32,555 nucleotides of DNA from Nitrospirota bacterium (lineage in GTDB: Bacteria; Nitrospirota; 9FT-COMBO-42-15; HDB-SIOI813), in the NCBI GenBank assembly GCA_016234155.1, contig JACRGZ010000013.1, positions 1 to 32,555 on the forward strand. The letters are read 5' to 3'. Of the stretch, positions 1-31,723 are shown piece after piece (position 1 is the first letter of the stretch; every line of letters begins with the position of its first letter). Both the position numbers and the translations under genes were made by a program. The notes under the pieces are model-generated. The model was not told the DNA's origin. It searched no databases and worked only from the letters and a program-made list of their open reading frames with translations.

Positions 1-2153
1 AATCTATCAATAAATCTAAAGGCCGGCGGTCCCTGATTCTCGAGGAGCATGCTTTTATTGGATATCCCAATATACCGCGGATGGGCCAGATTGGATACAA
101 AGAGGTCTAAGTCCCCGTCATTGTCATAGTCTCCCCACTCTGCGCCGATCGAATGTCCGTAGTAACCCTCTTCCTCATTCCCTTCTACGCCTGCCTCCAT
201 AGCAACATTTGTGAATGTGCCGTCCCCGTTATTCCGCCATAGGAAATTTGGGTCCAATCTATAATTCGCAACATATATATCGGGGTCTCCGTCATTATCA
301 TAGTCACCCCAGTTTACCCCCCTGCCGCACATCTTTTCCGGGGAGACTGTACCTACAAGAGCGCTTATGTCGGTAAATGAGCCGGCCATAAAGGCCGGCA
401 TGGACTCACCCTCCCCCGTACCCCCTCCCGTCAAGGGAGGGGGGGCATTTCTGAGGAGGCGGTCTTGTCGGCACCTTGCCCTCGCTACACTCTCAGACAA
501 TGGTCTTTCATAGTTGGCTATATATATGTCAATAAGGCCGTCATTGTCATAATCGCCCCATGCAGCAGCCTCGGTAGGAAGGGTGTCAGGGTCTGCCAGG
601 GCCGTTGGGGTAATATCAGTGAATGCCCCGTCCCCGTTATTCCTCCAAAATCTGTCAGTTGACCCCTTGCCTGATGCAAACGTATAAAAATCAATGTTGC
701 CGTCATTGTTGAAGTCCCCCCATAAACCTCCATTGGCGCCTGTAATACCGCCGATCCCTGCATCCTTCGTTACGTCAGTAAATGTCCCGTTGCCATTGTT
801 CTTAAAAAGTACCGTCCCATTAAACAGTATGTCTTCATATCCGTCATTATTATAGTCACCCCATGCGACCCTGCTTGCCCTTGCCTCTGATAATCCAGCC
901 TCTCTCGTTACGTCCGTAAATGATGTAACCCCCCTTTTTTTTGCAAAGAACTTGTTTGGCGGCTCTTCTACTAACAATCCCTCTAACCCTGTCGTCCTCC
1001 CTTTGATAAAGGGATATAAGGCCATGAGCCTCTCCTCTGCCTCCTTATTTTCTCCAGACTGATGGGCCTGCACATACGAATCAATTGCCCCGTATATCTC
1101 CCCATTTTCTTCGAGCAATAGTCCCTGGTGGTAGTACAGGTCCTTGTCATATTCAAGTAATTTAACTCCCCGTTTATATGCCTTCTCTGCATCTTTGTAT
1201 CTGCCAAGCTTGTAGTATGCCAAGCCAAGCGTGTCATAGTATGTCCCCTTTGCCTTTTTCAGGTCTTTGTGCCATTCAGTATCAGGGTAATGTTCAGGTT
1301 TATCAGCAGGGTCAGGATTGTTAATAAGGATTAATGCCTTTTTCAAATATGAGACTGCCATCTCTAAGGCGATATCCTTCTTTGTATACCAGTAGCCCAC
1401 AGAAAAATTTGCCCTCCTGTTATCAGGTTCATCCCTGATCCATTCTTCTCCGAATTGAAATAACCTCTCCTTATCTTTAAGTTCCTCTGCGGCTATGCTC
1501 ATCCGGATTGAGCGAACCATGTGGCGCTCTTTGCCTGAAGGAAATAGCCTCAAAAAGTCATCTATCATCTTCAGGCGCTTCTCTGCATCCTTCTCCGGCA
1601 GGATATTTTCTGAGAGATAATTAGAAAGGGTTGACCTGATCTCCTCATCAGGATCCAAGCCCATTATTTCTTCTGCTATTTTATCCGTCCTTTCATTTTT
1701 ATGAAGGAAGCTAAACCCTCTAAAGGCGGCCATAAGCCTCTCCGGGCCTTTATCTCCAGAGTTCATAAAGACCTCTATATCTATTTCCACTTCCTCCTTT
1801 GCCTTTTCCGAGTAACCGGACTCTTCTAATCTTACGGCCCAAAGGCCGACATAGGCCCCAAATGCATCCCTGTCATACCTTAATGCCTCTTTGTATGCAT
1901 GCCTGGCGCCTTCATAATTTTCTATTGTAAAATAGACATCCCCGAGGGCAACCCATGCCTCTGCATTCTTCTGATTATATCTAAGGGACTTTATCAGGGC
2001 GGCCTCTGCCCTGTCATATTTGCGCTTGTCAGCAAATGCCACCCCATTTTTAAGGTGTGTATCTGACTTGTAAGACTCTATAAGGGAGACACATCCCGTG
2101 GATATTAGAGAGGCATAGATGATAAGGGGGATCAGGGAAAGTTTTTTGACCAT
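1..2153 (-). CDS. TPR-repeat plus FG-GAP/VCBS-repeat (CRTAC1/ASPIC-UnbV-like) putative lipoprotein; C-terminal part runs off the window
   Basis: Absent from the ORF track because it has no stop in the window. Manual reverse-complement translation from ATG 2153-2151 stays open to position 1. It gives MVKKLSLIPLIIYASLISTGC (signal/lipobox-like), TPR-like helices, then repeated WGDY(D/N)NDG..D and (W/F)xNNG(D/N)GTFTDV motifs typical of FG-GAP/CRTAC1 proteins. The start overlaps the stop of the upstream gene by 22 nt. Confidence 0.75.
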   Translation of the reverse strand, partial: MVKKLSLIPLIIYASLISTGCVSLIESYKSDTHLKNGVAFADKRKYDRAEAALIKSLRYNQKNAEAWVALGDVYFTIENYEGARHAYKEALRYDRDAFGAYVGLWAVRLEESGYSEKAKEEVEIDIEVFMNSGDKGPERLMAAFRGFSFLHKNERTDKIAEEIMGLDPDEEIRSTLSNYLSENILPEKDAEKRLKMIDDFLRLFPSGKERHMVRSIRMSIAAEELKDKERLFQFGEEWIRDEPDNRRANFSVGYWYTKKDIALEMAVSYLKKALILINNPDPADKPEHYPDTEWHKDLKKAKGTYYDTLGLAYYKLGRYKDAEKAYKRGVKLLEYDKDLYYHQGLLLEENGEIYGAIDSYVQAHQSGENKEAEERLMALYPFIKGRTTGLEGLLVEEPPNKFFAKKRGVTSFTDVTREAGLSEARASRVAWGDYNNDGYEDILFNGTVLFKNNGNGTFTDVTKDAGIGGITGANGGLWGDFNNDGNIDFYTFASGKGSTDRFWRNNGDGAFTDITPTALADPDTLPTEAAAWGDYDNDGLIDIYIANYERPLSESVARARCRQDRLLRNAPPPLTGGGTGEGESMPAFMAGSFTDISALVGTVSPEKMCGRGVNWGDYDNDGDPDIYVANYRLDPNFLWRNNGDGTFTNVAMEAGVEGNEEEGYYGHSIGAEWGDYDNDGDLDLFVSNLAHPRYIGISNKSMLLENQGPPAFRFIDR
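381..399. repeat. R4 hairpin GCCGGCC-ATAAA-GGCCGGC (inside the CRTAC1-like CDS, adjoining R1 copy 1)
   Basis: Perfect 7-bp palindrome, 17/19 identical to 13911-13929. Confidence 0.8.
407..445 (-). repeat. R1 G/C-run hairpin module, copy 1 (inside the CRTAC1-like CDS)
   Basis: The sense strand reads CCCCCCCTCCC-TTGAC-GGGAGGGGG-TAC-GGGGGAGGGTG, with the same architecture as copies at 7916 and 22637. Confidence 0.85.
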
Positions 2154-3631: not shown

Positions 3632-3762
3632 TTGTCCCTATTTAACTGTGAAATTCGGCTTATAATAACAATCTGGGTTTGCAAAGTCAACGATAGACTT
3701 TTCCGTATTTGTGAACTGAGGCACTTAGCTAATTTTTCAACCTCCATCTGACGATATAACTA

Positions 3763-3787
3763 TAGCCTGCCCTGAACTTGTTTCAGG
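3763..3787 (-). repeat. R3 hairpin module (CCCTGAAACAAGTTCAGGGCAGGCT), copy a
   Basis: It is 25/25 identical to the reverse complement of 22607-22631 and contains a 7-bp-stem hairpin CCCTGAA/TTCAGGG. Intergenic, upstream of the GGDEF-EAL gene. Confidence 0.9.
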
Positions 3788-3825
3788 GTCATCGTACAAA
3801 AACCCCGGTGGCTGGCCTGAAGAGC

Positions 3826-5540: not shown

Positions 5541-5638
5541 TTTTACTCATTGGACAGACCTGAACAAATCCAAAATCCTAAATTTATTCTACCTACACTT
5601 GAATCCTCGACCCCTCGACCCCTTGAACCCTAATTTTC
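5541..5638 (+). repeat. Mosaic of repeat fragments (T3, T4, T1, and the right arm of T2) between convergent genes
   Basis: TTTTACTCATT (T3-like), GGACAGACCTGAA (T4 half), CAAATCCAAAATCCTAAATTT (T1-like), and ACTTGAATCCTCGACCCCTCGACCCCTTGAACCCTAATTT (T2 right arm only). Confidence 0.75.
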
Positions 5639-7915: not shown

Positions 7916-7953
7916 ACCCTCCCCCTTGATGGGGGAGGGTTAGGGTGGGGGTG
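7916..7953 (+). repeat. R1 G/C-run hairpin module, copy 2 (immediately upstream of the fdhE-like start)
   Basis: ACCCTCCCCC-TTGAT-GGGGGAGGG-TTA-GGGTGGGGGTG. Confidence 0.85.
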
Positions 7954-7956
7954 AAA

Positions 7957-9012
7957 ATGATGTCAAGAAACTTTTCAATATACAAGTCCTACCTTGACGA
8001 GCGGGGAAAACTGCATCCATTCATGCAGGACATGATCCTCTTCTACAAGGGGCTGATTGATATATGGGGTGAAGCCTCCCCTGACGACCTTTCTCCTTTG
8101 TTCCCCCCCCTCACTCAAGTTTTCCCCCCTTTTTTAAAGGGGGGTGAGGGGGGATTAAAGTGTATGCTCAACAAGGATAAAATCAAAGCCTTGGATTTTA
8201 CCAACAGCATAAGCGTCGCAAAGAAAATATTTAAATTATTCGAACAGGAGAAGAAAGATGCGGATATTGAATGTGCCGGCGCATCACCAGATGCCATTAT
8301 CGAATTTATAAAAGATGGCCTTGCCAGTGAGGAGAGATATAAAAACGCTATCCTTAAATGGATACTCAAGCCATCTTTTGAATACACAATAGGTAAGCTA
8401 AAAATAATTGGCCAAACTACCCTCCCCCCCTCGTTCATATCCCCTCTCCCCACCCCCCTCCATATCCTCCCCCCACACGGGGGGGAGGAAAAAAGCTTGC
8501 CCCCGAAGTATTTATCGGGGGGTGGGGGGGGTGATTTGCAGGGGGAGAGGGGAAGGGTGAGGGGGAGCAAATCGGTGAGGGGGAGCGTAGGCGGCATATG
8601 CCCCCTGTGCGCCTCCCCTCCAGGCATGGCCCTTGTCTATGCCCCTGGTGATGGAACATCTGATCAGCGCCTCCTCTCCTGCTGCTTCTGCGGATACAGG
8701 TGGCCTTATTCCATGACCGGCTGTCCGGCATGTGGCAATGACAGTCCGGAAAAGTTTGGTTTCTTTGTCGGGGATTCATCCCCCAAAGAAAGCCCAAAAG
8801 AACCCCCAAAAGAACCCCCAAAAGAAACTAATGACCAGGGTGTGCGTGCCGTAAGCTGTGAGGAGTGCAAGACTTATCTGAAGACCATCTTCATAGGATG
8901 CCGTGGTGACAACAGAGCCCCTGAGGACTTGGACATGGACATAGAAGACGTAGCTACCCTCCACCTCGATATAATAGCCAACCAGCGTGGGTACAAAGCC
9001 CTCTGTGGGTGA
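7957..9012 (+). CDS. FdhE-like zinc-ribbon protein carrying in-frame repeat insertions
   Basis: The C-terminal half follows the FdhE pattern: CPLC..(R)LLSCCFCGYRW..CPACG...VSCEECKTYLK...DMDIEDVATLHLDI...G. The track start GTG 7945 lies inside repeat R1, so ATG 7957 is preferred. No formate dehydrogenase genes are in the window. Confidence 0.65.
   Translation: MMSRNFSIYKSYLDERGKLHPFMQDMILFYKGLIDIWGEASPDDLSPLFPPLTQVFPPFLKGGEGGLKCMLNKDKIKALDFTNSISVAKKIFKLFEQEKKDADIECAGASPDAIIEFIKDGLASEERYKNAILKWILKPSFEYTIGKLKIIGQTTLPPSFISPLPTPLHILPPHGGEEKSLPPKYLSGGGGGDLQGERGRVRGSKSVRGSVGGICPLCASPPGMALVYAPGDGTSDQRLLSCCFCGYRWPYSMTGCPACGNDSPEKFGFFVGDSSPKESPKEPPKEPPKETNDQGVRAVSCEECKTYLKTIFIGCRGDNRAPEDLDMDIEDVATLHLDIIANQRGYKALCG
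8103..8153 (+). repeat. R1b nested G/C palindrome inside the fdhE-like CDS
   Basis: The outer stem pairs CCCCCCTCAC (8105-8114) with GTGAGGGGGG (8144-8153). The inner stem pairs CCCCCCTTT (8124-8132) with AAAGGGGGG (8136-8144). The 51 nt equal 17 codons. Confidence 0.8.
8441..8552 (+). repeat. R2 composite G/C palindromic element, copy a (inside the fdhE-like CDS; G/C-run flanks extend to ~8418-8595)
   Basis: The core CCTCCATATCCTCCCCCC-ACAC-GGGGGGGAGG-AAAAAAGCTTGCCCCCGAAGTATTTATCGGGGGGTGGGGG..ATTTGCAGGGGGAG matches the reverse complement of 26709-26820. The outer arms CCCCTCTCCCC and GGGGAGAGGGG pair. Confidence 0.85.
8782..8829 (+). repeat. In-frame tandem 12-nt repeat x4 (PKES-PKEP-PKEP-PKET) in the fdhE-like CDS
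   Basis: CCCAAAGAAAGC CCAAAAGAACCC CCAAAAGAACCC CCAAAAGAAACT. Confidence 0.9.
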
Positions 9013-9064
9013 ATGAGTGAATGGGTGAATGAGTAAAACCAATGATCCCATCTACCCATCTACC
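9007..9064 (+). repeat. T3 hairpin (GGGTGAAT/GAGTGAAT octamers), copy a
   Basis: GGGTGAATGAGTGAATGGGTGAATGAGTAAAACC .. CCCATCTACCCATCTACC. The fdhE-like stop TGA (9010-9012) lies inside it. Confidence 0.8.
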
Positions 9065-9068
9065 GATT

Positions 9069-9219
9069 GAGGCTCTTGCAAAAGTCCCCATTTTGTCATT
9101 CCCGCAGGGATTCTGAGCGGGAATCTGGTTCTAAGTGCTTGAAAAAGCATATCCCTCCCCGAGTGCTTCTATCGGGGATAGAAGATTTCGGGGATGACAT
9201 AGACTTTTGCAAGAACCTC
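9069..9219 (+). mobile_element. M1 MITE-like element, copy a (151 bp, 17-bp TIRs, GATT flanking duplication)
   Basis: The element runs GAGGCTCTTGCAAAAGT ... ACTTTTGCAAGAACCTC, with GATT on both flanks (9065-9068 and 9220-9223). The right ~70 nt are nearly identical to copy b. Internal hairpin ATTCCCGC/GCGGGAAT. Confidence 0.85.
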
Positions 9220-9284: not shown

Positions 9285-11153
9285 ATGTCCGGTCTTGTAA
9301 AAGAAAAGAATCTTTTAACCAGGGCTGCCTATCACTATGAGATTGTAGATGTAAAAGGGCCAAATCTGTTCAGGGAGTTCTTCCCTTATAATGAGGTCCC
9401 AAAGATCCCATTTAATCACCGTATTGTTCCGATGTATACCCCTGATGAGTTCTGGATTACTGATACCACCTTCAGGGATGGGCAGCAGGCAAGGCCGCCG
9501 TACGGTGTCGAACATATAGTAAAGATCTATGACATGCTCCACAGGTTGAGCGGCCCTAATGGTGTGATAAGACAGTGCGAGTTCTTTCTTTACAGCAAGA
9601 AGGACAGGGAGGCTGTAGAGAAGTGTCTTGAGAAGGGGTACAGGTATCCTGAGATAACGGGGTGGATAAGGGCGGTCAAGGAAGATTTCCAGATCGTCAG
9701 GGAGGCGGGCCTTAAAGAGACCGGTATCCTTACATCATGCTCTGACTACCATATCTTTTTAAAGCTTGGAACGACGAGGCGTGAGGCGGCCGACAAATAC
9801 CTTGATATAGTCAGGACGGCACTGGATGCCGGCATTGTGCCCCGCTGTCACCTTGAAGATATCACCCGTGCAGACTTCTATGGGTTTGTAATCCCCTTTG
9901 TCCAGAGGCTGATGGAGATCTCTGAGCAGAGCGGGATACCGGTCAAGATAAGGGCATGTGACACAATGGGGTATGGTGTCCCTTATATGGGCGCCTCAAC
10001 ACCCCGCGGGATACCGGAGCTTATCTATGGTCTTGTGCACTATGGCGGTGTTCCTTCAGAGCAGCTTGAGTGGCACGGGCATAATGATTTTCACAAGGCC
10101 CTGATAAATGCAACAACGGCATGGGTATATGGATGCAGTGCGGCTAACGGGGTCATATTCGGCTTTGGGGAGAGGACCGGCAATACCCCGATTGAGGCAT
10201 TAGTTATGGAGTATATATCATTGCGGGGGGATACAAATGGTGTAGATACAACCGTGATTACAGAGATAGCTGAATATTTCAGAAAGGAGCTCGGTGTCCT
10301 GATACCCTCAAATTACCCCTTTGTCGGCGCTGACTTTAATAACACAAGCGCCGGTATCCACGCGGACGGGGCGCTGAAGAACGAAGAGATATATAACATA
10401 TTTGATACTGTAAGACTCCTTAAGAGACCGATGGGGATTACTATTACGGACAAGTCCGGGGTTGCCGGTATTGCATACTGGGTGAACAGTCACCTGGGAT
10501 TGGAGGATGACCGTAAGGTGGATAAAAAACACCCCGGGATTGAAAAGATATACAGATGGGTTATGGAACAGTATGAAATGGGGAGGCTTACGGCCATATC
10601 GTCTGATGAGATGTTTACTCAGGCCAAGAAGCATCTGCCGGAATATTTTGGTTCAGAGCTTGACCGCCTGAAGAAGAGGGCTGAGGATATTATGGTGCCT
10701 CTGGTAGAGGATGTTGTTGATGATGGTTCATTTAAGACTATGAGTTTCGGGCAGATGGAGGCGATTATGCAGAAGCTGGTGGATGATAATCCGTTTATAC
10801 AGTTTGCCTATGTTGTTAACATGGACGGACGGCTTCTGACAAAAAATATAACCCAGTCGGCCGATAGGGCAAGATATGAGAGATTTGGCGTCGGACAGGA
10901 TTTCTCGAACAGGCCATGGTTTATCGAGCCGCTGAAGAGTGGTAATACCTTTGTCACCGATTTCTACAAGTCTACAATAACCGATGCCCTCTGTATAACG
11001 GTTTCTACCCCTGTCAGGAATGAGACAGGGGAGGTGAAGGGTGTATTTGGTGTTGATTTAAAGTTTGAGGATGTGGTAAAGATTGACAGGAGGATGGAGT
11101 TTGGCAGGGTATCTGCAGAGGAGAAGGGTGGAGTTGAAGGGGAGATAATATGA
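9285..11153 (+). CDS. HMGL-like (DRE-TIM) 2-oxoacid:acetyl-CoA condensing enzyme (homocitrate / Re-citrate synthase-like) fused to a C-terminal Cache/PDC-like domain
   Basis: ITDTTFRDGQQ, CDTMGYG, EWHGHNDFH and GERTGN are the catalytic signature of the IPMS/homocitrate/Re-citrate synthase family. The last ~170 aa show a Cache-like pattern (YVVNMDGRLL.., NRPWF, GVFGVDLKFEDV). It is followed by mdh and fumarase. Confidence 0.7.
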   Translation: MSGLVKEKNLLTRAAYHYEIVDVKGPNLFREFFPYNEVPKIPFNHRIVPMYTPDEFWITDTTFRDGQQARPPYGVEHIVKIYDMLHRLSGPNGVIRQCEFFLYSKKDREAVEKCLEKGYRYPEITGWIRAVKEDFQIVREAGLKETGILTSCSDYHIFLKLGTTRREAADKYLDIVRTALDAGIVPRCHLEDITRADFYGFVIPFVQRLMEISEQSGIPVKIRACDTMGYGVPYMGASTPRGIPELIYGLVHYGGVPSEQLEWHGHNDFHKALINATTAWVYGCSAANGVIFGFGERTGNTPIEALVMEYISLRGDTNGVDTTVITEIAEYFRKELGVLIPSNYPFVGADFNNTSAGIHADGALKNEEIYNIFDTVRLLKRPMGITITDKSGVAGIAYWVNSHLGLEDDRKVDKKHPGIEKIYRWVMEQYEMGRLTAISSDEMFTQAKKHLPEYFGSELDRLKKRAEDIMVPLVEDVVDDGSFKTMSFGQMEAIMQKLVDDNPFIQFAYVVNMDGRLLTKNITQSADRARYERFGVGQDFSNRPWFIEPLKSGNTFVTDFYKSTITDALCITVSTPVRNETGEVKGVFGVDLKFEDVVKIDRRMEFGRVSAEEKGGVEGEII

Positions 11154-11301
11154 GGTAAAATCCTAAGCACTAAATCCTAAATTCTAAACAATATCAAATG
11201 ACCAAAATCCAAAATTCAAAACAGCAAGGCTTTAGAAGTTTTGAACATTTGGATTTAGGATTTTGAATTTGTTTAGGATTTAGATATTAGGATTTAGGAT
11301 T
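11154..11301 (+). repeat. T1 long imperfect hairpin built from AATCCTA-type heptamers, copy a
   Basis: The left arm is AAATCCTAAGCACTAAATCCTAAATTCTAAACAATATCAAATGACCAAAATCC. The right arm is ..GAATTTGTTTAGGATTTAGATATTAGGATTTAGGATT. It starts right after the stop at 11153. The arms are shared with 31572-31711. Confidence 0.85.
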
Positions 11302-11318
11302 GCAATAAGGAGGCGAAA

Positions 11319-12269
11319 TTGGGCGGACGGAATAAAATAACCATTATCGGCGCCGGCAATGTAGGGGCCTCTACGGCCCAGAGGGTGATGGAGAAATCCC
11401 TGGGGGATGTGGTGTTAATAGACGTTGTAGAAGGGATCCCTCAGGGTAAGGCGCTTGATATCTTAGAAGCTGCCCCTTTAAGCAATGCCGATGTAAGTGT
11501 CACGGGAACAAATAGTTATGATGAGACCGCAGGGTCTGATATTATTGTTATAACGGCAGGACTTGCAAGAAAACCCGGTATGAGCCGGCGGGATCTGTTA
11601 GAAAAAAATGCCAGGATAGTAAGGGATGTTACTGCAGAGGCTGTAAGACACTCACCTGACGCAATACTTATCGTTGTAACAAACCCCATGGATCTTATGA
11701 CATCTGTATCATGGAACGTCTCGGGTTTTCCAAGTCATCGTGTGATAGGGATGGGTGGTGTGCTTGATTCATCCAGGTTCAGATGTTTTATTGCCTCCGA
11801 ACTTAATGTATCAGTAGAGAATATACATGCCTTTGTACTTGGCGGTCATGGAGACCTCATGGTGCCGCTGCCGAGATTTTCCACCGTCGCCGGTGTCCCG
11901 ATAACTGAGATATTGTCAAATGCCCGGATAGACAAGATGGTGGAGCGTACAAGGTCTGGCGGCGGCGAGATCGTGGGGCTTCTTAAGACGGGGAGCGCCT
12001 ATGTGGCGCCTGCGGCGGCGATTACAGAGATGGTGGAGGCTATTATTCTTGACAAAAAGAAGATAATGCCATGCGCAGTGTATTTAGACGGGGAGTATGG
12101 GGTGAAAGACATGTTTGTTGGTGTGCCAGTAAAACTGGGGAAGAAAGGTGTAGAGGAGATTATTGAGATAAAGTTTACGGATGAGGAGAGGGAGGCGTTT
12201 CTTAAGTCTGTTGACAGGGTCAGGAGCGGAGTAGATGAGGTAAAACAAATCCTAAATCCTAAATCCTAA
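11319..12269 (+). CDS. mdh: Malate dehydrogenase (LDH-like family)
   Basis: [13 protein letters not shown] Rossmann motif, VVTNPMD, and ~316 aa. The TTG start sits 5 nt after AAGGAGG (11307-11313). The last 8 codons and the stop lie in a repeat. Confidence 0.85.
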
Positions 12270-12377
12270 ATTATTGGTAAGGGGTCAAGGGGTCAAGGAT
12301 TCAAGGGGTCAAGTGATATTAATTCACTTGAATCCTTGACCCCTCGACCCCTTGAACCCTAATTTAGGATTTTACCG
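12243..12377 (+). repeat. Nested composite hairpin: T1-type outer arms around T2 (GGGGTCAA octamer) inner arms
   Basis: The sequence runs AAATCCTAAATCCTAAATCCTAAATT .. GGGGTCAAGGGGTCAAGGATTCAAGGGGTCAAGTGA-TATTAA-TTCACTTGAATCCTTGACCCCTCGACCCCTTGAACCC .. TAATTTAGGATTTT. Confidence 0.85.
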
Positions 12378-13847: not shown

Positions 13848-13878
13848 ATTTTGGACAGACCTGAAGGTCTGTCCCTAC
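13848..13878 (+). repeat. T4 palindromic 31-mer ATTTTGGACAGACCTGAAGGTCTGTCCCTAC, copy a (nested in outer stem GGGTCATC/GATGACCC, 13833-13893)
   Basis: The 9-bp stem pairs GGACAGACC with GGTCTGTCC. It is identical to the reverse complement of 15348-15378. Confidence 0.9.
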
Positions 13879-13910
13879 GTCTCCCGATGACCCTACACCC
13901 TAGACTATAG

Positions 13911-14635: not shown

Positions 14636-14786
14636 GAGGCTCTTGCAAAAGTATAAAAATGTTGTCATTCCCGCATGGTTTAAGCGGGAATATAGTGTTT
14701 TATTACAGAAAATCATATCCGTCCCCGAGTGGCTTCTATCGGGGATAGAAGATTTCGGGGATGACATAGACTTTTGCAAGAGCCTC
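14636..14786 (+). mobile_element. M1 MITE-like element, copy b (151 bp, perfect 17-bp TIRs, CAAA flanking duplication)
   Basis: The element runs GAGGCTCTTGCAAAAGT ... ACTTTTGCAAGAGCCTC, with CAAA on both flanks (14632-14635 and 14787-14790). It lies between lptC and the body of lptA. Confidence 0.85.
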
Positions 14787-15323: not shown

Positions 15324-15347
15324 GGCTAAGTTAGGGTGAAGAAAGAT

Positions 15348-15378
15348 GTAGGGACAGACCTTCAGGTCTGTCCAAAAT
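15348..15378 (-). repeat. T4 palindromic 31-mer, copy b (inverted), between lptA and lptB
   Basis: It is 31/31 identical to the reverse complement of 13848-13878. Confidence 0.9.
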
Positions 15379-19152: not shown

Positions 19153-19164
19153 TAGTATATGTGA

Positions 19165-19234
19165 AGGGTTCAAGGGTTCAAGGGGTCAAGGGGTCGAGGG
19201 GTCAAGTGAAATTCACTCGACCCCTTGACCCCTT
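19165..19234 (+). repeat. T2 hairpin (GGGTTCAA/GGGGTCAA octamers), copy in the 5' leader of the MerR-pil operon
   Basis: AGGGTTCAAGGGTTCAAGGGGTCAAGGGGTCGAGGGGTCAAGTGAA-ATTCACTCGACCCCTTGACCCCTT. The arms have unequal unit numbers. Confidence 0.85.
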
Positions 19235-22156: not shown

Positions 22157-24876
22157 AGTTATTTAATTTTCATGGGATCATCTGTGCAGTATTTGCAGCC
22201 TTATGTCTTTCTGCATGTTCTCCAAAGGTTCAACAGGTGGTAAGCAGTGCAGAGGTCATAGGGGCTGTACAGGCGACTGCTATCCCAAGGCTTACAAAAA
22301 TTGAAGTGGACGATTTACCGGCGAGCACGCAGATTCTATTAGAGGCGGAGGATGTTTTGAATTATACATCCTTTAATCTCTCCGATCCTCCAAGACTGAT
22401 TATTGATTTGGCGGATATCTCCCTGGGAGAGTTTAAGGAACCTATATCAGTAAATAAGGGGTCTGTTATAGATATCTACCCTATTGAGGCAGATACCCCC
22501 GGGAGGATTACAAGGCTGAATATAAAACTCGTCAGTGATTCCGTAGAATCACAGATTTTCAGAAAGGACGGCACGCTTGTAGTAGATATTCCGAAGATAC
22601 CCCCAACCCTGAAACAAGTTCAGGGCAGGCTCTATCCCTCCCCCCTTGAGGGGGAGGGCAAGGGTGGGGGGGGTAAGGAGGAAGAAGTTACAGCAGAGGC
22701 TTTTGCTGTAGAACCTATTGCGGAAGTACCGCCTGTTGCAGGACCACTTGCTATAGAACTGCCTGTTGCAGAGCCTCTTGCTGCAGAACCTCCTGTCGAA
22801 GTGCCGTCCGTTGAGGAACCTCCTATGGAAGTAACATCTGTTGCAGAACCTCCTGTGGAAGTGCCGCCTGCGGCAGAATCCTATGCAGCAGAGTCTCCTT
22901 TACCTGCTCCTGTTGCTGGAGTTCCTGTGTCTGGGATGGTGGGCAATGTCCGCCCTACACCTGAGGCTTCTGTGTCAGAGACGACTGCAGTGCCGGATAC
23001 GTCTACAGCAAAAGCTGCTGTCTCAGAAGCGGACACTCCTCCTATACAAAAGGAATTCAACATTGTTAAAGATGTAAAGAGCCTTTCATCTGATGATAAA
23101 GACAGCATTGTTATTACCGCTGATAAAGATATTAATGCAGAGACATTTATTGTTGAAGGCGGCAAGTTAGTAGTTGATATAAAAGATGCGACCCATTCGA
23201 TTTACCCATCTGAGAAACCTGTTGAAAGCAGTTTGATATCAAAGATCAGGATCGGACTTCACCCAGCGCCGGTCAACAAGGTAAGGGTTGTTGCTGACCT
23301 CAAAAGGGAGATAAGATACGATGTCAGCAGACATGGGAGCGGTTTGACCATAGATATTTTTCCAAAATCCGGAAAAATAACGCTAAAAAAACCTGATGAG
23401 AAAACCATGTCTGACATTACCGGGGCATCTGCTGAAACCCCTTTGCAAAAAGGGGACGCATCCGTCAGCGCTCCTCCCGCTGACACAAAGGAATCTCCCG
23501 CAACTGTGACACCTCCGCCGGCTCCGTTAGCAGCAGCAATGAACACGGATAAGGTCGTTTCTGAGGTGTCAACAACTGAAGTAAGAGAAGAAAAGCCGGC
23601 GCCGCCTCCTCAAGTTACCACTAATGTGCCGGAGAAAAAGAACGGCACATATGCCAGCAAGAAGGTATCCCTTGATTTTCAGGACGCGGACATAGTGAAT
23701 GTCCTGAGACTGCTTGCAGAGGTAAGCAGGTTAAATATGATCATAGGGGATAATGTCAAGGGGAGGATAACAATAAAGATGCTGGATGTGCCATGGGACC
23801 AGGCCCTTGATGTGATCTTGAAGATGAAAGGGCTTGGCAAGATATTTGAAAACAACGTTGTCAGGATAGACACCCTTGCTAATATTGCCCAGCAACAGGA
23901 GGAGGAGGCAAGGGCAAAAGAGGCAATGGTCAAGGCAGAGGATCTGGAGACAAAGATATTTCCTGTAAATTATGCGCGGGGAAAAGAAGTCGCTGAATCG
24001 GTCAGAAAGACCCTGAGCGCAAGGGGTGATATTACGGTAGACGACCGCACAAATACCCTGATTATAAAAGACGTTAAGGATAAACATGAAGAGATCAGCA
24101 GGCTTCTTAAGGCGCTTGACAGGCCAACCCCGCAGGTTTTGATTGAGGCGCGGATTGTTCAGGCAGACACGAATTTCGCAAAAGACCTTGGAATACAGTG
24201 GGGGGGTGACTATTCTTCAAATCCTGGCAGTTACAATATAGGCGTTATCGGCGGGCCCACAGGAACGGTGGGAGCTCCAACAACGGGATTTGTAGTTAAC
24301 CTTCCGGCGTCCGGTGTGGCAGGGGCTAAAGGCAGTCTTGGTTTTACAATAGGGAAGACGGTAGGGGATGCCTTTAATCTTGACTTAAGGCTTTCTGCCG
24401 GGGAGACAAAGGGGTTAACAAAGGTACTGTCAGCCCCCAAGATTGCCACCCTCGATAACAGGGAGGCTACAATCCAGCAGGGGGAATCAATCCCGTACAA
24501 GACTGTGTCACAGGGTGGGACAAAGACGGAGTTTATTGACGCCACCCTTACACTTAAGGTGACCCCGAAGGTCACCCCCGATGGCCATATTGCGATGAAT
24601 ATCAAGATAACCAAGAACCGCCAGGGCTCGATAGTGGTAGAAGGGACACCCAGCATAAACAAGAAAGAGGCCACAACAGAGGTTCTTGTGAAAGACGGTG
24701 AGACGACAGTGATCGGCGGTATTTACGAGATTTCAGATGTAGATAATCTCAGTGCAGTCCCATGGGTTCATCAGGTCCCGCTGCTTGGATGGCTTTTTAA
24801 GAGCACACAGAAGTCAAATATCAAGAGTGAACTCCTGATATTTATCACACCTAAGATCATTCCTGTGACTTTATGA
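22153..24876 (+). CDS. pilQ: Type IV pilus secretin PilQ with AMIN domains and a long Pro/Glu/Ala/Val-rich linker
   Basis: Lipoprotein-type signal (LCLSAC), AMIN-like modules (..PPRLIIDLADI.., ..KLVVDIKDA.., ..GLTIDIFP), and a secretin C-terminus (VPLLGWLFK....ELLIFITPKII). Confidence 0.9.
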   Translation: MKLFNFHGIICAVFAALCLSACSPKVQQVVSSAEVIGAVQATAIPRLTKIEVDDLPASTQILLEAEDVLNYTSFNLSDPPRLIIDLADISLGEFKEPISVNKGSVIDIYPIEADTPGRITRLNIKLVSDSVESQIFRKDGTLVVDIPKIPPTLKQVQGRLYPSPLEGEGKGGGGKEEEVTAEAFAVEPIAEVPPVAGPLAIELPVAEPLAAEPPVEVPSVEEPPMEVTSVAEPPVEVPPAAESYAAESPLPAPVAGVPVSGMVGNVRPTPEASVSETTAVPDTSTAKAAVSEADTPPIQKEFNIVKDVKSLSSDDKDSIVITADKDINAETFIVEGGKLVVDIKDATHSIYPSEKPVESSLISKIRIGLHPAPVNKVRVVADLKREIRYDVSRHGSGLTIDIFPKSGKITLKKPDEKTMSDITGASAETPLQKGDASVSAPPADTKESPATVTPPPAPLAAAMNTDKVVSEVSTTEVREEKPAPPPQVTTNVPEKKNGTYASKKVSLDFQDADIVNVLRLLAEVSRLNMIIGDNVKGRITIKMLDVPWDQALDVILKMKGLGKIFENNVVRIDTLANIAQQQEEEARAKEAMVKAEDLETKIFPVNYARGKEVAESVRKTLSARGDITVDDRTNTLIIKDVKDKHEEISRLLKALDRPTPQVLIEARIVQADTNFAKDLGIQWGGDYSSNPGSYNIGVIGGPTGTVGAPTTGFVVNLPASGVAGAKGSLGFTIGKTVGDAFNLDLRLSAGETKGLTKVLSAPKIATLDNREATIQQGESIPYKTVSQGGTKTEFIDATLTLKVTPKVTPDGHIAMNIKITKNRQGSIVVEGTPSINKKEATTEVLVKDGETTVIGGIYEISDVDNLSAVPWVHQVPLLGWLFKSTQKSNIKSELLIFITPKIIPVTL
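22607..22631 (+). repeat. R3 hairpin module, copy b (inside pilQ, fused to R1 copy 3)
   Basis: It is an identical 25-mer, translated in frame as TLKQVQGR. Confidence 0.9.
22637..22673 (+). repeat. R1 G/C-run hairpin module, copy 3 (inside pilQ)
   Basis: CCCTCCCCCC-TTGA-GGGGGAGGG-CAA-GGGTGGGGGGGG, translated in frame as PSPLEGEGKGGGG. Confidence 0.85.
22780..22869 (+). repeat. In-frame tandem 30-nt repeat x3 in the PilQ linker
   Basis: The three units are GCTGCAGAACCTCCTGTCGAAGTGCCGTCC, GTTGAGGAACCTCCTATGGAAGTAACATCT and GTTGCAGAACCTCCTGTGGAAGTGCCGCCT. Confidence 0.85.
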
Positions 24877-24974
24877 GGGGTAAATGAGTAAATGGGTAAA
24901 TGAGTGAATGAGTATATGAGTAAAACCACCCATTTTACCCATCTACTCATTTACCCATTCACTCATTCACTCAC
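24877..24974 (+). repeat. T3 hairpin, copy b; fills the whole pilQ-aroC intergenic space
   Basis: GGGGTAAATGAGTAAATGGGTAAATGAGTGAATGAGTATATGAGTAAAACC-ACCCATTTTACCCATCTACTCATTTACCCATTCACTCATTCACTCAC. Confidence 0.85.
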
Positions 24975-26138
24975 ATGATTAGCTTTCTTACAGCAGGAGA
25001 GTCCCACGGCCAGCTTCTCTTAGGCGTCATCGAAGGCATTCCTGCCGGTTTGGAACTTGCCAGTAATGACATAAACATAGATCTCTCCCGCAGGCAGATT
25101 GGTTACGGCCGCGGCGGGAGGATGCGGATTGAGAAGGATCTTGCAGAAATTACCTGCGGGGTCAGATGGGGCAAGACCATGGGGGGGCCGATAGGGCTTT
25201 TAATAAGGAATAAAGACTGGGTAAACTGGTCAGACAGTATGTCACCGGACTCGTCCCTGTCAGGCTGTATCCCGCCTGAGACAAGGCCAAGACCAGGCCA
25301 TGCCGACCTTTGCGGCATCATTAAATATTCTCATGACGATATCAGAAATGTGCTGGAGCGGGCGAGTGCAAGAGAGACTGCAATGAGGGTGGCCATCGGC
25401 GCCGTGGCAAAGAGGTTTTTAGCGGTATTTAGCATTGAGGTCTTAAGTCATGTTACAGAGATCGGGGGGGAGAAGGCAAAGCTTCTTAATCGTCAGCTTG
25501 ATTCTATCATTCAGGATGCAGAGAGGTCTGAGTTTCGGTGTGGTGATAAAAAGGCCGGGGCAAGGATGCGGAAAAAGATAGATGAGGCCAAGAAAAAGGG
25601 TGATTCAGTAGGGGGTATATTTGAGATAATTGCCACAAACGTCCCTGTTGGATTGGGGAGTTACTCACAGTGGGACAGGCGTTTTAATGCAAAACTTTCA
25701 TATGCGGTGATGAGTATACAGGCGATTAAAGGTGTGGAGATTGGGATTGGATTTGAGGCGGCAAGACGGTTTGGTTCGGAAGTCCATGATGCCATCTATT
25801 ATGATAAGGTCAGACGCAGGTTCTACAGAAAGACAAACAGGGCAGGCGGTATAGAAGGCGGCATAACTAACGGCGAAAATATAATAATTCGCGCTGCCAT
25901 GAAGCCTATAGCCACATTATATTCACCTTTAGATTCGGTTGATATAAAGACAAAGAAACCTTTTAAGGCGTCTGTTGAGCGCTCTGACATATGTGCAGTC
26001 CCTGCGGCAAGCGTAGTCGGTGAGGCGATGATTGCGGTAGAGATAGCTAATGCATTCATAGAGAAGTTCGGCGGCGATTCGATGACAGAGATAAAGAGAA
26101 ATTACGAAGGATACCTTGAGTATATAAAAGAGATTTAA
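24975..26138 (+). CDS. aroC: Chorismate synthase
   Basis: [27 protein letters not shown], and 387 aa. Confidence 0.9.
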
Positions 26139-26154
26139 GTTAATTTATTTTCAG

Positions 26155-26679
26155 ATGAAAAACATCGTACTGATCGGCTTCATGGGCAGCGGCAAGACAG
26201 AGGTGGGAAAGAGACTGGCTGAGAGGCTATCCTATACCTTTGTGGATACAGACAGACTGATAGAGGAAAAGAGAGGGAAAAGTGTTGCAGGTATATTCTG
26301 GGGAGAAGGAGAGTCTCGCTTCAGGGAGCTTGAGGTCTCAATAATAAGAGAGTTATCAATTAGAGCTTTATCAGTGGTAACAGGGCATGTAATATCCACC
26401 GGCGGCGGGATAGTTATAAGCAGTGATAATATCCGGAGTCTTAAAAAAATAGGATTACTTGTATGGCTTAAGGCATCTCCTGAGACTATCTATAGAAGAG
26501 TGAGTTCTGAGACACACAGGCCGCTATTAAATTTAGATGATCCGCTTGCAGAGATCAAAAGGCTCCTCTCTTTTCGCGAACAATTTTATTCGGAGGCTGA
26601 TATATCGGTTGACACTGATGGACTTGATGTGGATAAGATAGTTGATGTTATAATAAGAAGGGTAAGAAGTAAGAAGTAA
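26155..26679 (+). CDS. aroK: Shikimate kinase
   Basis: LIGFMGSGKTEVGKRLA Walker A, ~170 aa, located between aroC and aroB. Confidence 0.85.
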   Translation: MKNIVLIGFMGSGKTEVGKRLAERLSYTFVDTDRLIEEKRGKSVAGIFWGEGESRFRELEVSIIRELSIRALSVVTGHVISTGGGIVISSDNIRSLKKIGLLVWLKASPETIYRRVSSETHRPLLNLDDPLAEIKRLLSFREQFYSEADISVDTDGLDVDKIVDVIIRRVRSKK

Positions 26680-26708: not shown

Positions 26709-26820
26709 CCCCTCCCCCTGTAAATTGCCCCCCACCCCCCGATAAATACTTCGGGGGCAAGCTTTATTCCTCCCCCCCCTTGTGGGGGGGGAGGATATGG
26801 AGGGGGGGGGAGGGTTAGAG
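26709..26820 (-). repeat. R2 composite G/C palindromic element, copy b (intergenic aroK-aroB, inverted relative to copy a)
   Basis: Its reverse complement aligns to 8455-8552 at roughly 90% identity by eye. It contains C8, G8 and G9 runs. Confidence 0.85.
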
Positions 26821-26850: not shown

Positions 26851-26908
26851 GGGGTGGAAATGGCCCATTCAGCATAGAATGGGCTTATTTATTTTGCCCG
26901 GAGGTTTC

Positions 26909-28042
26909 ATGCGAAAAGTCAGGGTGGAGTTGGGCCAGAGGAGTTATGATATCTGCATAGGTCATAACATCCTGACTGGATTAGCAAGACACCTGAAAGG
27001 GCTTTCCGTAGGAAAAAAGGGGGCCATAATTACAAATCCCATTATAAAAAAGCCCTATGGTGATCCCATCCAGCAGCATTTAATAGACGAAGGTTTTTCT
27101 ATCACTACCATTGAACTTCCGGCGGGTGAACGATATAAAACACTCAGGTCTGTCGGCAAGATATATGACATTCTTATTGAAAAGAAGTTTGAACGGGATT
27201 CTTTTATCATAGCCCTCGGGGGCGGAGTGATAGGGGATATAGCAGGATTTGCAGCAGCGACTTATTTGCGGGGGATACCGTATATACAGGTCCCTACATC
27301 GTTAGTTGCGCAGGTAGACAGCAGTGTAGGCGGGAAGACAGGGGTGAATCATCCGCTCGGCAAGAACTTGATCGGGGCGTTCTATCAACCTATCCTTGTC
27401 TGGATTGATGTGGAGGTGTTGAAAACACTCCCACGCCGTGAGCTGATAGCGGGGATGGCGGAGGTGGTAAAATACGGCGTGATTGCAGATACCCGATTTT
27501 TTAATTTTATCGGGGAAAATTACAAAAATGTCCTTTCCCTTGAGCAGAAGGCCTTGATTCACACTGTGGCAAGATCTTGCGAGATAAAGGCTATGGTAGT
27601 CAGCGCTGATGAGAGGGAGAAGGGGCAAAGGGCTATCCTCAACTTCGGGCATACCATGGGACACGCCATAGAGACGGCAACGGATTACAGGAGATACAGG
27701 CATGGTGAGGCCGTAGCCATGGGGATGGCCTTCGCTGCAAGACTGGCTACTGTCCTGGGGATGTGCCATAAGGATGTGCTCAACTGGATAGAGAGGGTGT
27801 GCAGCTCTATAGGGCTAAGGACATCTTTGCCCGCGGCAGGGTTTGAAACACTCTGGGATATCCTTCAGAGGGATAAGAAGGTTATTAATGAAAGGCTCAG
27901 ATTTGTCCTTCCGGTGAGACTCGGAGAGGTAAAGATAGTAGATGGAATAGGCAGGGTGGTGTTGCAAAAGACAGTACAATCATGTTATAGTTCATACAAA
28001 AACGTGAGACATGAGAAAAGAGTATCAGGACATCATAAATGA
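26909..28042 (+). CDS. aroB: 3-dehydroquinate synthase
   Basis: GGGVIGDIAGFAAATYLRGI, VPTSLVAQVDSSVGGKTGVN, and GHTMGHAIE. ATG 26909 lies 5 nt after GGAGG. The track start 26879 has no SD. Confidence 0.9.
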   Translation: MRKVRVELGQRSYDICIGHNILTGLARHLKGLSVGKKGAIITNPIIKKPYGDPIQQHLIDEGFSITTIELPAGERYKTLRSVGKIYDILIEKKFERDSFIIALGGGVIGDIAGFAAATYLRGIPYIQVPTSLVAQVDSSVGGKTGVNHPLGKNLIGAFYQPILVWIDVEVLKTLPRRELIAGMAEVVKYGVIADTRFFNFIGENYKNVLSLEQKALIHTVARSCEIKAMVVSADEREKGQRAILNFGHTMGHAIETATDYRRYRHGEAVAMGMAFAARLATVLGMCHKDVLNWIERVCSSIGLRTSLPAAGFETLWDILQRDKKVINERLRFVLPVRLGEVKIVDGIGRVVLQKTVQSCYSSYKNVRHEKRVSGHHK

Positions 28043-31205: not shown

Positions 31206-31574
31206 TTGGATATAGTATCACTACCGATTGTATTTGATAAGGGGAGATTAGACAGCAGGTTCCGATTAGTTGTCCTTGCTACTGAAAGGGCACGGCAACT
31301 CATGAGCGGGGCAAAACCTGGTATTTCTACAAGGTATATAAAGGCCTCCACTATTAGCCTTGAAGAGCTTGCATCGTGTGAGTTTGAATATGTTACAGGT
31401 AAAGATGCACGTAAGGCGATACAGGAGACGATAGCTAAGAAAGAACTGGGGGGTATGGGTGTTGCCGGAGAAGTTGTAGAAGAGGATGAGACAAAGAAAG
31501 AGATAGAAAAGGACCTTGGTGTTTATATACCGGAGGCCGGGAGTGGGACAGGGGCTGGAGGAGGGGAGGAGTAA
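31206..31574 (+). CDS. rpoZ: DNA-directed RNA polymerase subunit omega
   Basis: SRFRLVVLATERARQL core motif, position after gmk, and a TTG start. The acidic, Gly-rich C-terminal tail ends in a TAA that is the first base triplet of repeat T1b. Confidence 0.8.
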   Translation: MDIVSLPIVFDKGRLDSRFRLVVLATERARQLMSGAKPGISTRYIKASTISLEELASCEFEYVTGKDARKAIQETIAKKELGGMGVAGEVVEEDETKKEIEKDLGVYIPEAGSGTGAGGGEE

Positions 31575-31711
31575 ATCCTAAACTCTAAATCCTAAATCCT
31601 AAACAATATCAAATGACCAAAATTCAAATGTTGAAAACGGCATAGAGTTTTGAATTTAGGTCATTTGGATTTCGAATTTGTTTAGGATTTAGATATTAGG
31701 ATTTAGGGTTT
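31572..31711 (+). repeat. T1 long imperfect hairpin, copy b
   Basis: AAATCCTAAACTCTAAATCCTAAATCCTAAACAATATCAAATGACCAAAATTCAAA ... GAATTTGTTTAGGATTTAGATATTAGGATTTAGGGTT. The rpoZ TAA is its first triplet. Confidence 0.85.
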
Positions 31712-31723
31712 GATTATTTTCGT

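Follow-up and report, generated by a model that had tools for sequence, protein, structure and literature searches.

Genomic context of the FdhE-like gene

We analysed a stretch of 32,555 nt from contig JACRGZ010000013.1 of a Nitrospirota bacterium, hereafter referred to as the window. This stretch harbours a gene whose protein resembles FdhE, and the reading frame of this gene contains short G/C-rich palindromic repeats that also occur elsewhere in the window and in other contigs. The open reading frame (ORF) spans positions 7945/7957-9012 of the forward strand and encodes a protein of 351-355 amino acids (aa), depending on the start codon. The gene was compared with L001, an independent ENA contig that encodes the orthologue P0001 and displays the same gene order as the window. 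The features of the gene were as follows:

7957-9012, forward strand: FdhE-like coding sequence (CDS) from the ORF list, 351 aa; ATG at 7960 is a possible alternative start, the one used in L001
8103-8153, forward strand: insert 1 (R1b), a 51-nt palindrome of four blocks arranged as C1-C2-loop-G2-G1, with the predicted translation PPLTQVFPPFLKGGEGG
8419-8586, forward strand: insert 2 as a whole, 168 nt or 56 codons, delimited by protein alignment, between the helical domain and the first CxxC
8419-8451, forward strand: outer element of insert 2, C-rich arm CCCTCCCCCCCTC..CCCCTCTCCCC, from the comparison with L001
8452-8540, forward strand: nested element of insert 2, a net gain of 87 nt over L001, read as TPLHILPPHGGEEKSLPPKYLSGGGGGDL
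8541-8573, forward strand: outer element of insert 2, G-rich arms GGGGGAGAGGGG AA GGGTGAGGGGGAG, from the comparison with L001
8556-8591, forward strand: 18-nt tandem duplication GGTGAGGGGGAGCAAATC / GGTGAGGGGGAGCGTAGG, of which L001 has only one copy
8779-8826, forward strand: 12-nt tandem repeat coding for SPKESPKEPPKEPPKE (the PKE repeat), from the self-comparison repeat list and the alignments

The protein showed limited agreement with the profiles of the FdhE family. It scored 27.5 bits against Pfam FdhE_C (cut-off 27), 19 against FdhE_central (cut-off 27), and 41.7 bits against TIGR01562, far under the cut-off of 187.65. Meanwhile, a Foldseek search with the AlphaFold model returned the FdhE of Pseudomonas (2FIY) as the sole significant match (E 3.7e-7, TM 0.63 on target), and both proteins display a helical N-terminal domain followed by two rubredoxin-like CxxC pairs. 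The window protein differs from FdhE in that its sequence scores at or below the family cut-offs, it has no formate dehydrogenase neighbours, and its neighbours lptF/lptG are constant. Formate dehydrogenase genes were found neither in the 32-kb window nor in the syntenic loci of L001, L007, and L040, and lptF/lptG precede the FdhE-like gene in the window and in every syntenic relative fetched. The borderline or low profile scores, the FdhE fold, and the lack of formate dehydrogenase genes make FdhE-like the appropriate label. A protein database search yielded 65 homologues, mostly of 273-282 aa and named only as proteins from metagenome-assembled genomes (MAGs) of Nitrospirota or Nitrospirae. 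The gene belongs to a distinct Nitrospirota clade.

Three in-frame expansions in one gene

An alignment of 22 orthologous sequences located the extra material of the window protein in three places, namely 8103-8153, 8419-8586, and 8779-8826. Orthologues have about 275 aa against the 351 aa of the window protein, and 20 of the 21 aligned orthologues lack these particular inserts. Deletion of the three segments raised the FdhE_C score to 33.5 bits and extended the profile match. These results agree with the original prediction that the segments are insertions and not ancestral parts of the family. As had also been claimed, the cysteine pattern and the C-terminal LD motif remain in frame: the four pairs CPLC, CCFC, CPAC, and CEEC and the motif LDMDIEDV are invariant across the alignment, and the window protein retains 43 invariant columns.

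In the AlphaFold model, built on 22 homologues, pLDDT fell under 50 in four stretches only: residues 54-66, 151-211, 274-280, and 287-292. Elsewhere, values of 80-96 prevailed, except for the block 101-110 (mean 63). The first low-confidence segment is the R1b region, the second corresponds to insert 2, and the last two belong to the region of the PKE repeat (274-292). The model thus shows an FdhE fold that is confident apart from disordered loops, in which the inserts are located.

Insert 1 lies at site 1 of the protein, after LSPLF. Its DNA reads CCCCCCCCTCAC TCAAGTTTT CCCCCC TTTTTTAAA GGGGGG TGA GGGGGG and gives (F)PPLTQVFPPFLKGGEGG in the frame of the ORF; both the length of exactly 51 nt and the sequence are as originally described. 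It consists of an outer stem and a C6/G6 hairpin similar to H2, a recurrent hairpin described below, and has a predicted RNA folding energy of -34 kcal/mol. The same insert is found in L001, and a near-identical copy of 39-43 nt lies outside any long ORF at positions 6963-7005 of contig L013. The loop at site 1 is variable in all orthologues, so the net gain from insert 1 is small, approximately 4-10 residues.

Insert 2, at site 2, has a layered structure that was revealed by the comparison with L001. At this site L001 reads ACCCTCCCCCCCTC TTTCATAT CCCCTCTCCCC TTT GGGGAGAGGG AAA GGGTGAGGGGG, which is the outer element. The place of the TTT loop is taken in the window by a nested element of 89-90 nt (8452-8540), composed of the motif CCTCCCCCC ACAC GGGGGGGAGG ... 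GGTGGGGGGG, whose second loop holds an A-rich linker and the hairpin H2 (CCCCCGAAGTATTTATCGGGGGG). Insert 2 is therefore the result of at least three events: an outer hairpin/triplex motif, an 87-nt element within its loop, and an 18-nt duplication. An example of the peptides that these inserts are predicted to encode is SLPPKYLSGGGGGDLQGER. The region 8410-8600 has a predicted RNA folding energy of -114 kcal/mol (z -4.8). The third expansion of the gene, also in frame, is the PKE repeat, which lies between the second and third Cys pairs. It has two extra 12-nt units (24 nt) in comparison with L001, and no such units were found in the other orthologues.

These data refine the earlier description. 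The peptide quoted for the second insertion was exact, although its length of about 58 codons is reduced to 56 by the orthologues. Its end, described as immediately preceding the first CxxC, is close to it, yet four codons (VGGI) intervene before CPLC (8599-8610). Two independent insertions had been proposed; both are insertions, but the second is composite and nested, and the PKE repeat adds a third expansion. Finally, the core of the second insert was correctly said to exist as non-coding DNA. Positions 8448-8529 match 26728-26809 in inverted orientation, with 83% complementarity over 82 nt, and this copy falls between the ORFs 26155-26679 and 26879-28042.

Frame preservation and purifying selection

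The CDS of the window and that of L001 are about 96% identical in the DNA alignment. The window is longer by 87 nt, 18 nt (the tandem duplication), and 24 nt (the PKE repeat), and L001 lacks 33 nt, which encode the ancestral segment IGKLKIIGQT, exactly at the left edge of insert 2. All four of these indels are divisible by three, for which the probability by chance is about 1 in 81. A fifth difference lies outside of the CDS: a G/C hairpin segment precedes the start codon in the window and is missing from L001, and its length of 34 nt is not divisible by three. Four of the five indels fall within or beside a motif, and the fifth (the 24-nt PKE expansion) is about 200 nt downstream; this association is qualitative, as it stems from a single pair of genomes without control regions.

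We translated each element in six frames and counted those that are open:

H1-H2 consensus: 3 of 6 frames open
nested element: 4 of 6 frames open
outer element of L001: 4 of 6 frames open
R1b: 1 of 6 frames open

The original prediction offered two explanations for the intact frame, that only in-frame landings survive or that the elements are biased to be open. The second, in the form of elements open in every frame by nature, was rejected based on these counts. The limited number of open frames, the in-frame indels of the CDS, and the 34-nt difference in non-coding DNA favour the survival of in-frame landings only. The genomic distribution of H2 also fits this explanation better, since only 3 of 17 distinct H2 sites lie within long ORFs and most others are intergenic. 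Several of those H2 sites are located directly before start codons, for example upstream of flhA in contig L010.

The gene is under purifying selection. Using the Nei-Gojobori method for the window gene and L001, we obtained a dS of 0.146 and a ratio of nonsynonymous to synonymous rates (dN/dS) of 0.27 outside the inserts. Among the shared insert codons, which provide few sites, dS was 0.13 and dN/dS was 0.61. The value of 0.27 excludes the reading of the gene as a pseudogene. Together with the in-frame indels and the retention of all Cys ligands, it bears out the view that the gene is not decaying.

A dispersed family of G/C-rich repeats

Sequences related to the inserts were found across the window and in metagenome contigs. 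A motif finder that asks for a perfect C/G stem of 8 and a mirror-image third block (one mismatch allowed) detected 6 loci in the window, the nested element of insert 2 among them, whereas 30 Markov shuffles yielded none. The copies outside the FdhE-like CDS included the following:

409-443, reverse strand: triplex motif in frame in an FG-GAP/UnbV_ASPIC repeat protein (APPPLTGGGTGEGES), from the motif finder
3761-3789, forward strand: lone intergenic module of linker and variant hairpin H2', TATAGCCTG CCCTGAACTTGTTTCAGGG, from the inverted-pair list
7917-7951, forward strand: intergenic triplex motif CCCTCCCCC TTGAT GGGGGAGGG TTA GGGTGGGGG, directly 5' of the FdhE-like start codon, from the motif finder
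22601-22675, forward strand: triplex motif and H2' in frame in PilQ (PTLKQVQGRLYPSPLEGEGKGGGGKE), a putative insertion
26709-26820, reverse strand: second occurrence of the nested element, in intergenic DNA and enclosed by an outer CCCTCCCCC..GGGGGAGGG hairpin, from self-comparison and the motif finder

The 22-nt hairpin H2 was found in 31 metagenome contigs, which represent about 15 distinct sites. When aligned by eye, these sites displayed a common layout of H1, linker, H2, and tail: an optional CCCCTCACC block, H1 (CCCTCTCCCC-loop-GGGAGAGGG), the linker TCAGAGCCTG, H2, and the tail TGAGGGG. The stems of H1 vary through compensatory changes. The copies at 7917-7951 and 22636-22670 represent this unit without its H2. 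Both copies of the nested element in the window sit inside outer hairpins, suggesting either that hairpin loops are preferred or that the composite moved as one unit. The whole window had no match to Rfam at the gathering thresholds, so no known structured RNA accounts for the hairpins. In the motif at 7917-7951, the third G-block runs into a GGTGA sequence similar to a Shine-Dalgarno site.

In-frame copies in unrelated genes

The FdhE-like gene is not the only one to carry these repeats in frame. The FG-GAP protein reads RN[APPPLTGGGTGEGESMPAFMAGS]FTD within a conserved FG-GAP repeat, where the syntenic orthologue from L040 has NGDGT. In the secretin PilQ, the hairpin module has the opposite orientation to the copy in the FdhE-like gene. 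A strict orientation bias among coding copies had been considered and was rejected based on this module. Directly 3' of the in-frame motif, PilQ also has a 15-nt tandem array (22688-22900) that encodes units similar to (A/V)EPPVEVP, and the N-terminal linker of this protein seems to be built largely from repeats.

Further examples came from metagenome contigs. An aspartyl-tRNA synthetase (AspRS) contains LIPSPLEGEGQSLPPKYLSGGEGGV between positions matching residues 412 and 415 of the Thermus enzyme, and a second G/C-palindrome insert, PNSPPFQGGDNRG, at L038 3791-3836. A glycyl-radical enzyme encoded in L015 carries LSPLVGEGRSLPPKYLSGGEGD in frame. An 81-nt double motif was found in frame in an ORF of L018 that reads as a putative membrane protein, possibly a glycosyltransferase. 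The peptide SLPPKYLSGG(E/G)G occurs in three unrelated proteins, FdhE-like, AspRS, and the glycyl-radical enzyme, in one common frame; on its own, this agreement among three H2 copies is not significant, as its probability is about 1 in 9 if three frames are open.

Near residues ~150-170 of the glycyl-radical enzyme, an extra SHQSSVISHQS looks like a translated short tandem repeat. The chorismate synthase of the window (24975-26138) has 361 residues for 326 profile positions in the part matched by Pfam, which makes it about 34 residues longer there, with G-runs at 25181 and 25464, and may hold a further in-frame insert.

Repeated insertion at two loops of FdhE-like proteins

Several orthologues displayed different G/C-palindrome inserts in the same two loops. 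The close relatives L006 and L007 differ in their element at site 1. A 14-nt direct duplication, TTTCGGATGAAACC, flanks the insert of L007, which is formed by a small hairpin and an exact match to the TMECO pattern described in the next section. L006 carries CCTCCCCCCACACGGGGGGGAG, which is identical to window positions 8466-8487. At site 2, L040 (61% protein identity) has CCCCTCCCCCC TCGC GGGGGAGGG ACA GGGTGGGG in frame. Additional residues are found there in P0016 as well, and at both sites in P0019. A profile search of genome contigs with the protein alignment retrieved four distant orthologues only. The repeated hits at two loops fit a filter in which permissive loops tolerate insertions, and a true insertional hot spot is also conceivable.

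Resemblance to BoxC/PIT/TMECO motifs

The original prediction treated the repeats as G/C palindromes without further affiliation. Their palindromic nature was confirmed, but they are not anonymous, as they match a described family. TMECO, formerly known as BoxC or PIT, follows the pattern CCCTCNCCC N3-6 GGGNGAGGG N3 GGGNGAGGG (Holder et al. 2015, PMC4666352). PIT refers to potential intrastrand triplex; earlier work on the motif came from Bachellier/Hofnung and the Maher laboratory, as cited in that article. E. coli MG1655 has 23 copies that are "always located intergenically". The motifs are catalogued in proteobacteria and have no tie to transposons or mobility genes, and their flanks are more variable between strains, with small local rearrangements (PMC4666352).

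For membership of this family, we considered a C-stem of about 9 nt, a loop of 3-6, a complementary G-stem, a loop of 3, and a mirror G-stem (T or A opposite A). This sequence pattern was found at 7917-7951, 22636-22670, L001 2101-2158, L007 3200-3232, and site 2 of L040. The match in L001 is its outer element, which is uninterrupted and lies within the CDS. The nested core and the copies bearing H2 keep the three blocks with a second loop of about 30 nt, making them a variant of the pattern. In addition, the spacer between phnL and phnK of E. coli 042, CCCCTCACCC TAG CCCTCTCCCC TCT GGGGAGAGGG CCG GGGTGAGGGG, has the same four-block layout as the Nitrospirota elements. In E. coli genomes, the consensus element had only weak BLAST matches (E 0.6, 34-36 nt), which proved to be BoxC copies on inspection; we regard these as a lead to the literature and not as evidence of homology.

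The third block of the elements was examined using asymmetric stems only, because 8-mers from near-symmetric stems are uninformative. Among 89 such hairpins, 20 had a third block that was a mirror only, 0 a direct repeat only, 30 both, and 39 neither. Furthermore, the third block covaries with the purine stem as its mirror, as in GGGGGAGGG with GGGTGGGGG and GGGGGGGAGG with GGTGGGGGGG. A mirror third block is what a triplex-type constraint predicts, which does not amount to proof of a triplex in vivo. The G-blocks would also have the potential to form G-quadruplexes.

Judging from block order and sequence, the core of the inserted repeats fits the published BoxC/PIT/TMECO intrastrand-triplex pattern. 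The likeness extends to the four-block palindromic form, multi-copy dispersal, the lack of a mobility gene nearby, and indels clustered around the motif. There are also differences. In contrast to the motifs of E. coli MG1655, which are reported as exclusively intergenic, the Nitrospirota copies are in frame in at least three genes of one 32-kb window and in several genes on related contigs. The second loop of TMECO has 3 nt, whereas many Nitrospirota copies hold H2 or H2' there (about 30 nt). Finally, the Nitrospirota copies nest in each other, and their hosts are Nitrospirota instead of proteobacteria.

Proposed mechanism and alternative explanations

Based on these findings, we postulate that short G/C-rich repeats of one dispersed family have, very probably, entered the FdhE-like gene on several occasions. 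In the repeat core, a C-rich block is separated by a loop from its G-rich complement, and another loop leads to a further G-rich block that mirrors this complement. This is the intrastrand-triplex architecture of BoxC/PIT/TMECO, often with H2 in the second loop and sometimes with an outer stem. Copies would arise throughout the genome, and those landing in genes would persist only if in frame, free of stop codons, and placed in tolerant surface loops or linkers. Such copies would then be translated into disordered peptides of the Pro/Leu/Ser...Gly/Glu/Arg type while the host protein remains functional, so the observed pattern would be the outcome of a selective filter on the survival of copies. 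A resident copy may itself become a target or hot spot, as suggested by the nesting of one element within the loop of another. Later, slippage-like changes would have altered the flanks, giving the 18-nt duplication in the window and the 33-nt deletion in its relative; a small duplication and a small deletion beside the motif are in line with what is described for TMECO as structure-induced instability. The copies could be made by a trans-acting enzyme that recognises hairpins, or through template switching where stable hairpins or triplexes form.

Several observations weigh against this scenario. None of the 27 window proteins that were scanned contained transposase or RAYT domains. The copies in the window have no clear target-site duplications, meaning that the term mobile element is not demonstrated for them: the polymorphic sites of the window display no duplication relative to L001, and the 14-nt duplication was seen at the L007 insert. 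The nested 87-nt insertion is known from this window alone and from no independent assembly; the metagenome scan for H2 did not retrieve the locus of the window itself. There is no empty-site allele for insert 1 among close relatives, and its loop varies in every orthologue. A single ancient insertion, instead of two, could account for the motifs that the window and L040 have at site 2. Lastly, studies of duplex TMECO DNA and in vivo footprinting in E. coli saw no stable triplex (PMC4666352).

In the closest competitor of the colonisation scenario, the repeats are generated and spread by replication errors at hairpins or triplexes (template switching, slippage, or gene conversion between copies) and are not transposed. 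Local instability caused by these structures, and no mobile element, would then have produced the insertions as a by-product. We consider this rather unlikely, though it has several points in its favour. Three of the indels (18-nt duplication, 24-nt expansion, 33-nt deletion) directly flank the motif or lie near it, small local rearrangements accompany the TMECO sites of E. coli without a link to transposases (PMC4666352), the window copies lack target-site duplications, and the 14-nt duplication of L007 is longer than typical transposase footprints. However, a copy with 83% identity to the 87-nt element lies at a distance of 18 kb, and an identical H2 recurs on different contigs at about 15 unrelated sites. 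Spread to genes as unrelated as AspRS and the glycyl-radical enzyme requires copying between distant loci, which is beyond local slippage. It is very improbable that the inserts are absent from the mature protein due to RNA processing or to ribosomal bypassing at stable RNA hairpins. The systems for comparison here are T4 gene 60 and the GC-rich mitochondrial "byp" elements. The extreme RNA structure predicted for both inserts is what such a process would call for, but bypass elements break the frame or hold stop codons, and matched take-off and landing codons were not found here. The inserts and the later indels are all in frame and free of stops in the frame used, even though roughly every second frame is closed. 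Neither constraint would act on segments that are bypassed or excised, which makes bypassing unlikely. In addition, the frame of SLPPKYLSGG is identical in three unrelated proteins.

Two further alternatives deny that there were insertions into a functional gene. A decaying pseudogene or an assembly artefact at repeats is very improbable. The window's own protein is missing from the protein database searched, the organism is uncultured, and the nested element lacks independent confirmation, which are the points in favour of this reading. On the other hand, the dN/dS of 0.27, the conservation of frame in every indel, and the intact Cys ligands and 43 invariant columns contradict decay. An artefact is unlikely because L001, an independent assembly, has insert 1 as well as the outer element of the second insert. 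In addition, the two copies of the nested element share only 83% identity (82 nt) and are by our reasoning too divergent to be collapsed by an assembler. Least credible of all is the possibility that the segments are ancestral, lineage-specific loops of the FdhE-like clade whose palindromy is coincidental. The loops at both sites do vary among all orthologues, and the window shares insert 1 with L001, but DNA copies of the same sequences exist in non-coding DNA and unrelated genes, and presence/absence polymorphism is observed at about 14% synonymous divergence.

Relation to other repeats and implications

In-frame palindromic elements and the BoxC/PIT/TMECO motif are both already known. The RPE family comprises palindromic repeats in frame in unrelated housekeeping genes of Rickettsia (Ogata et al. 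2000, summarised in PMC10969869). As far as that summary goes, the likeness to the Nitrospirota elements covers in-frame palindromes in unrelated genes, one peptide shared by different proteins, inserts predicted to be on the protein surface, and host proteins that apparently remain functional. By the same account RPE have about 100-150 bp and reside in an AT-rich genome, while the Nitrospirota elements are G/C blocks of 35-90 nt with triplex-type mirror symmetry. Nesting and recurrent hits at the same two loops are prominent in the latter, and no sequence similarity between the two was found or expected. We treat the Nitrospirota elements as an analogue of RPE, set apart by composition, length, and host.

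The elements also resemble REP/BIME sequences in being short, imperfect G/C-rich palindromes that form hairpin mosaics and differ in copy number between close relatives. REP elements carry a conserved GTAG head, which is not evident in the Nitrospirota elements. Moreover, REPs are extragenic by definition, whereas the elements described here are also genic and have no RAYT gene in the window. Terminal inverted repeats with short target duplications, as in MITEs, were not seen, the 14-nt duplication of L007 being the exception.

The combination of a triplex-type G/C motif that is predicted to be translated in several genes, including essential ones, nests in itself, and occurs in Nitrospirota appears to be undescribed in the literature that we searched. 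In-frame colonisation of genes by selfish palindromes is known mainly from Rickettsia. The same outcome in a free-living phylum and through another type of element suggests a general route to disordered loops in bacterial proteins. The origin and function of BoxC/PIT/TMECO motifs, held to be strictly intergenic, have been unresolved for three decades; these motifs are confined neither to proteobacteria nor to intergenic DNA, and nest in themselves. Clean insertions that separate close relatives can be used to work out how the copies are made. We tentatively suggest that BoxC/PIT/TMECO-type motifs could be spreading actively in this Nitrospirota clade, with a preference for hairpin loops and occasional landings in coding DNA. 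If so, RPE-like translated insertions would be present across the proteome, essential enzymes included, and the 87-nt, 34-nt, and L007 14-nt polymorphisms would make the copying mechanism directly tractable. From a practical point of view, such inserts inflate protein lengths, lower family-profile scores, place very stable hairpins in mRNAs, and can mislead the annotation of MAGs.

Other repeats and neighbouring genes

The intergenic DNA of the window also contains octamer tandem arrays of three families, which occur as inverted pairs:

9004-9060 and 24877-24975: TGAATGAG
5596-5636, 12279-12365, and 19156-19233: AAGGGGTC
11158-11301, 12243-12272, and 31570-31715: AAATCCTA

The stop codon of the FdhE-like gene (TGA, 9010-9012) falls in the first TGAATGAG unit. 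L001 lacks this array and its protein ends in ..AVCQR instead of ..ALCG, so the array appears to have replaced the last codons. Farther 3' of the gene, 9097-9219 is a repeat cluster formed by GTCATTCCCGCAGGGATTCTGAGCGGGAATC and a 55-nt unit that is repeated at 14732-14786 with 98% identity; the whole cluster is missing from L001. A hairpin similar to GCGGGAATGAC was also recognised by eye in metagenome contig L024. An inverted pair of 35 nt (13848-13882 and 15344-15378, 97% complementary), each member of which is a hairpin (GGACAGACCTGAAGGTCTGTCC), brackets lptC-lptA.

The gene that follows the FdhE-like gene (9285-11153) encodes an unusual fusion of an HMGL-like catalytic domain, of the homocitrate/isopropylmalate synthase type, and a dCache sensor domain. 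The same fusion gene neighbours the FdhE-like gene in L040. Between the two genes, L040 has an extra gene of 261 aa without Pfam hits (10810-11595), and the corresponding place in the window is intergenic DNA filled with repeats only.

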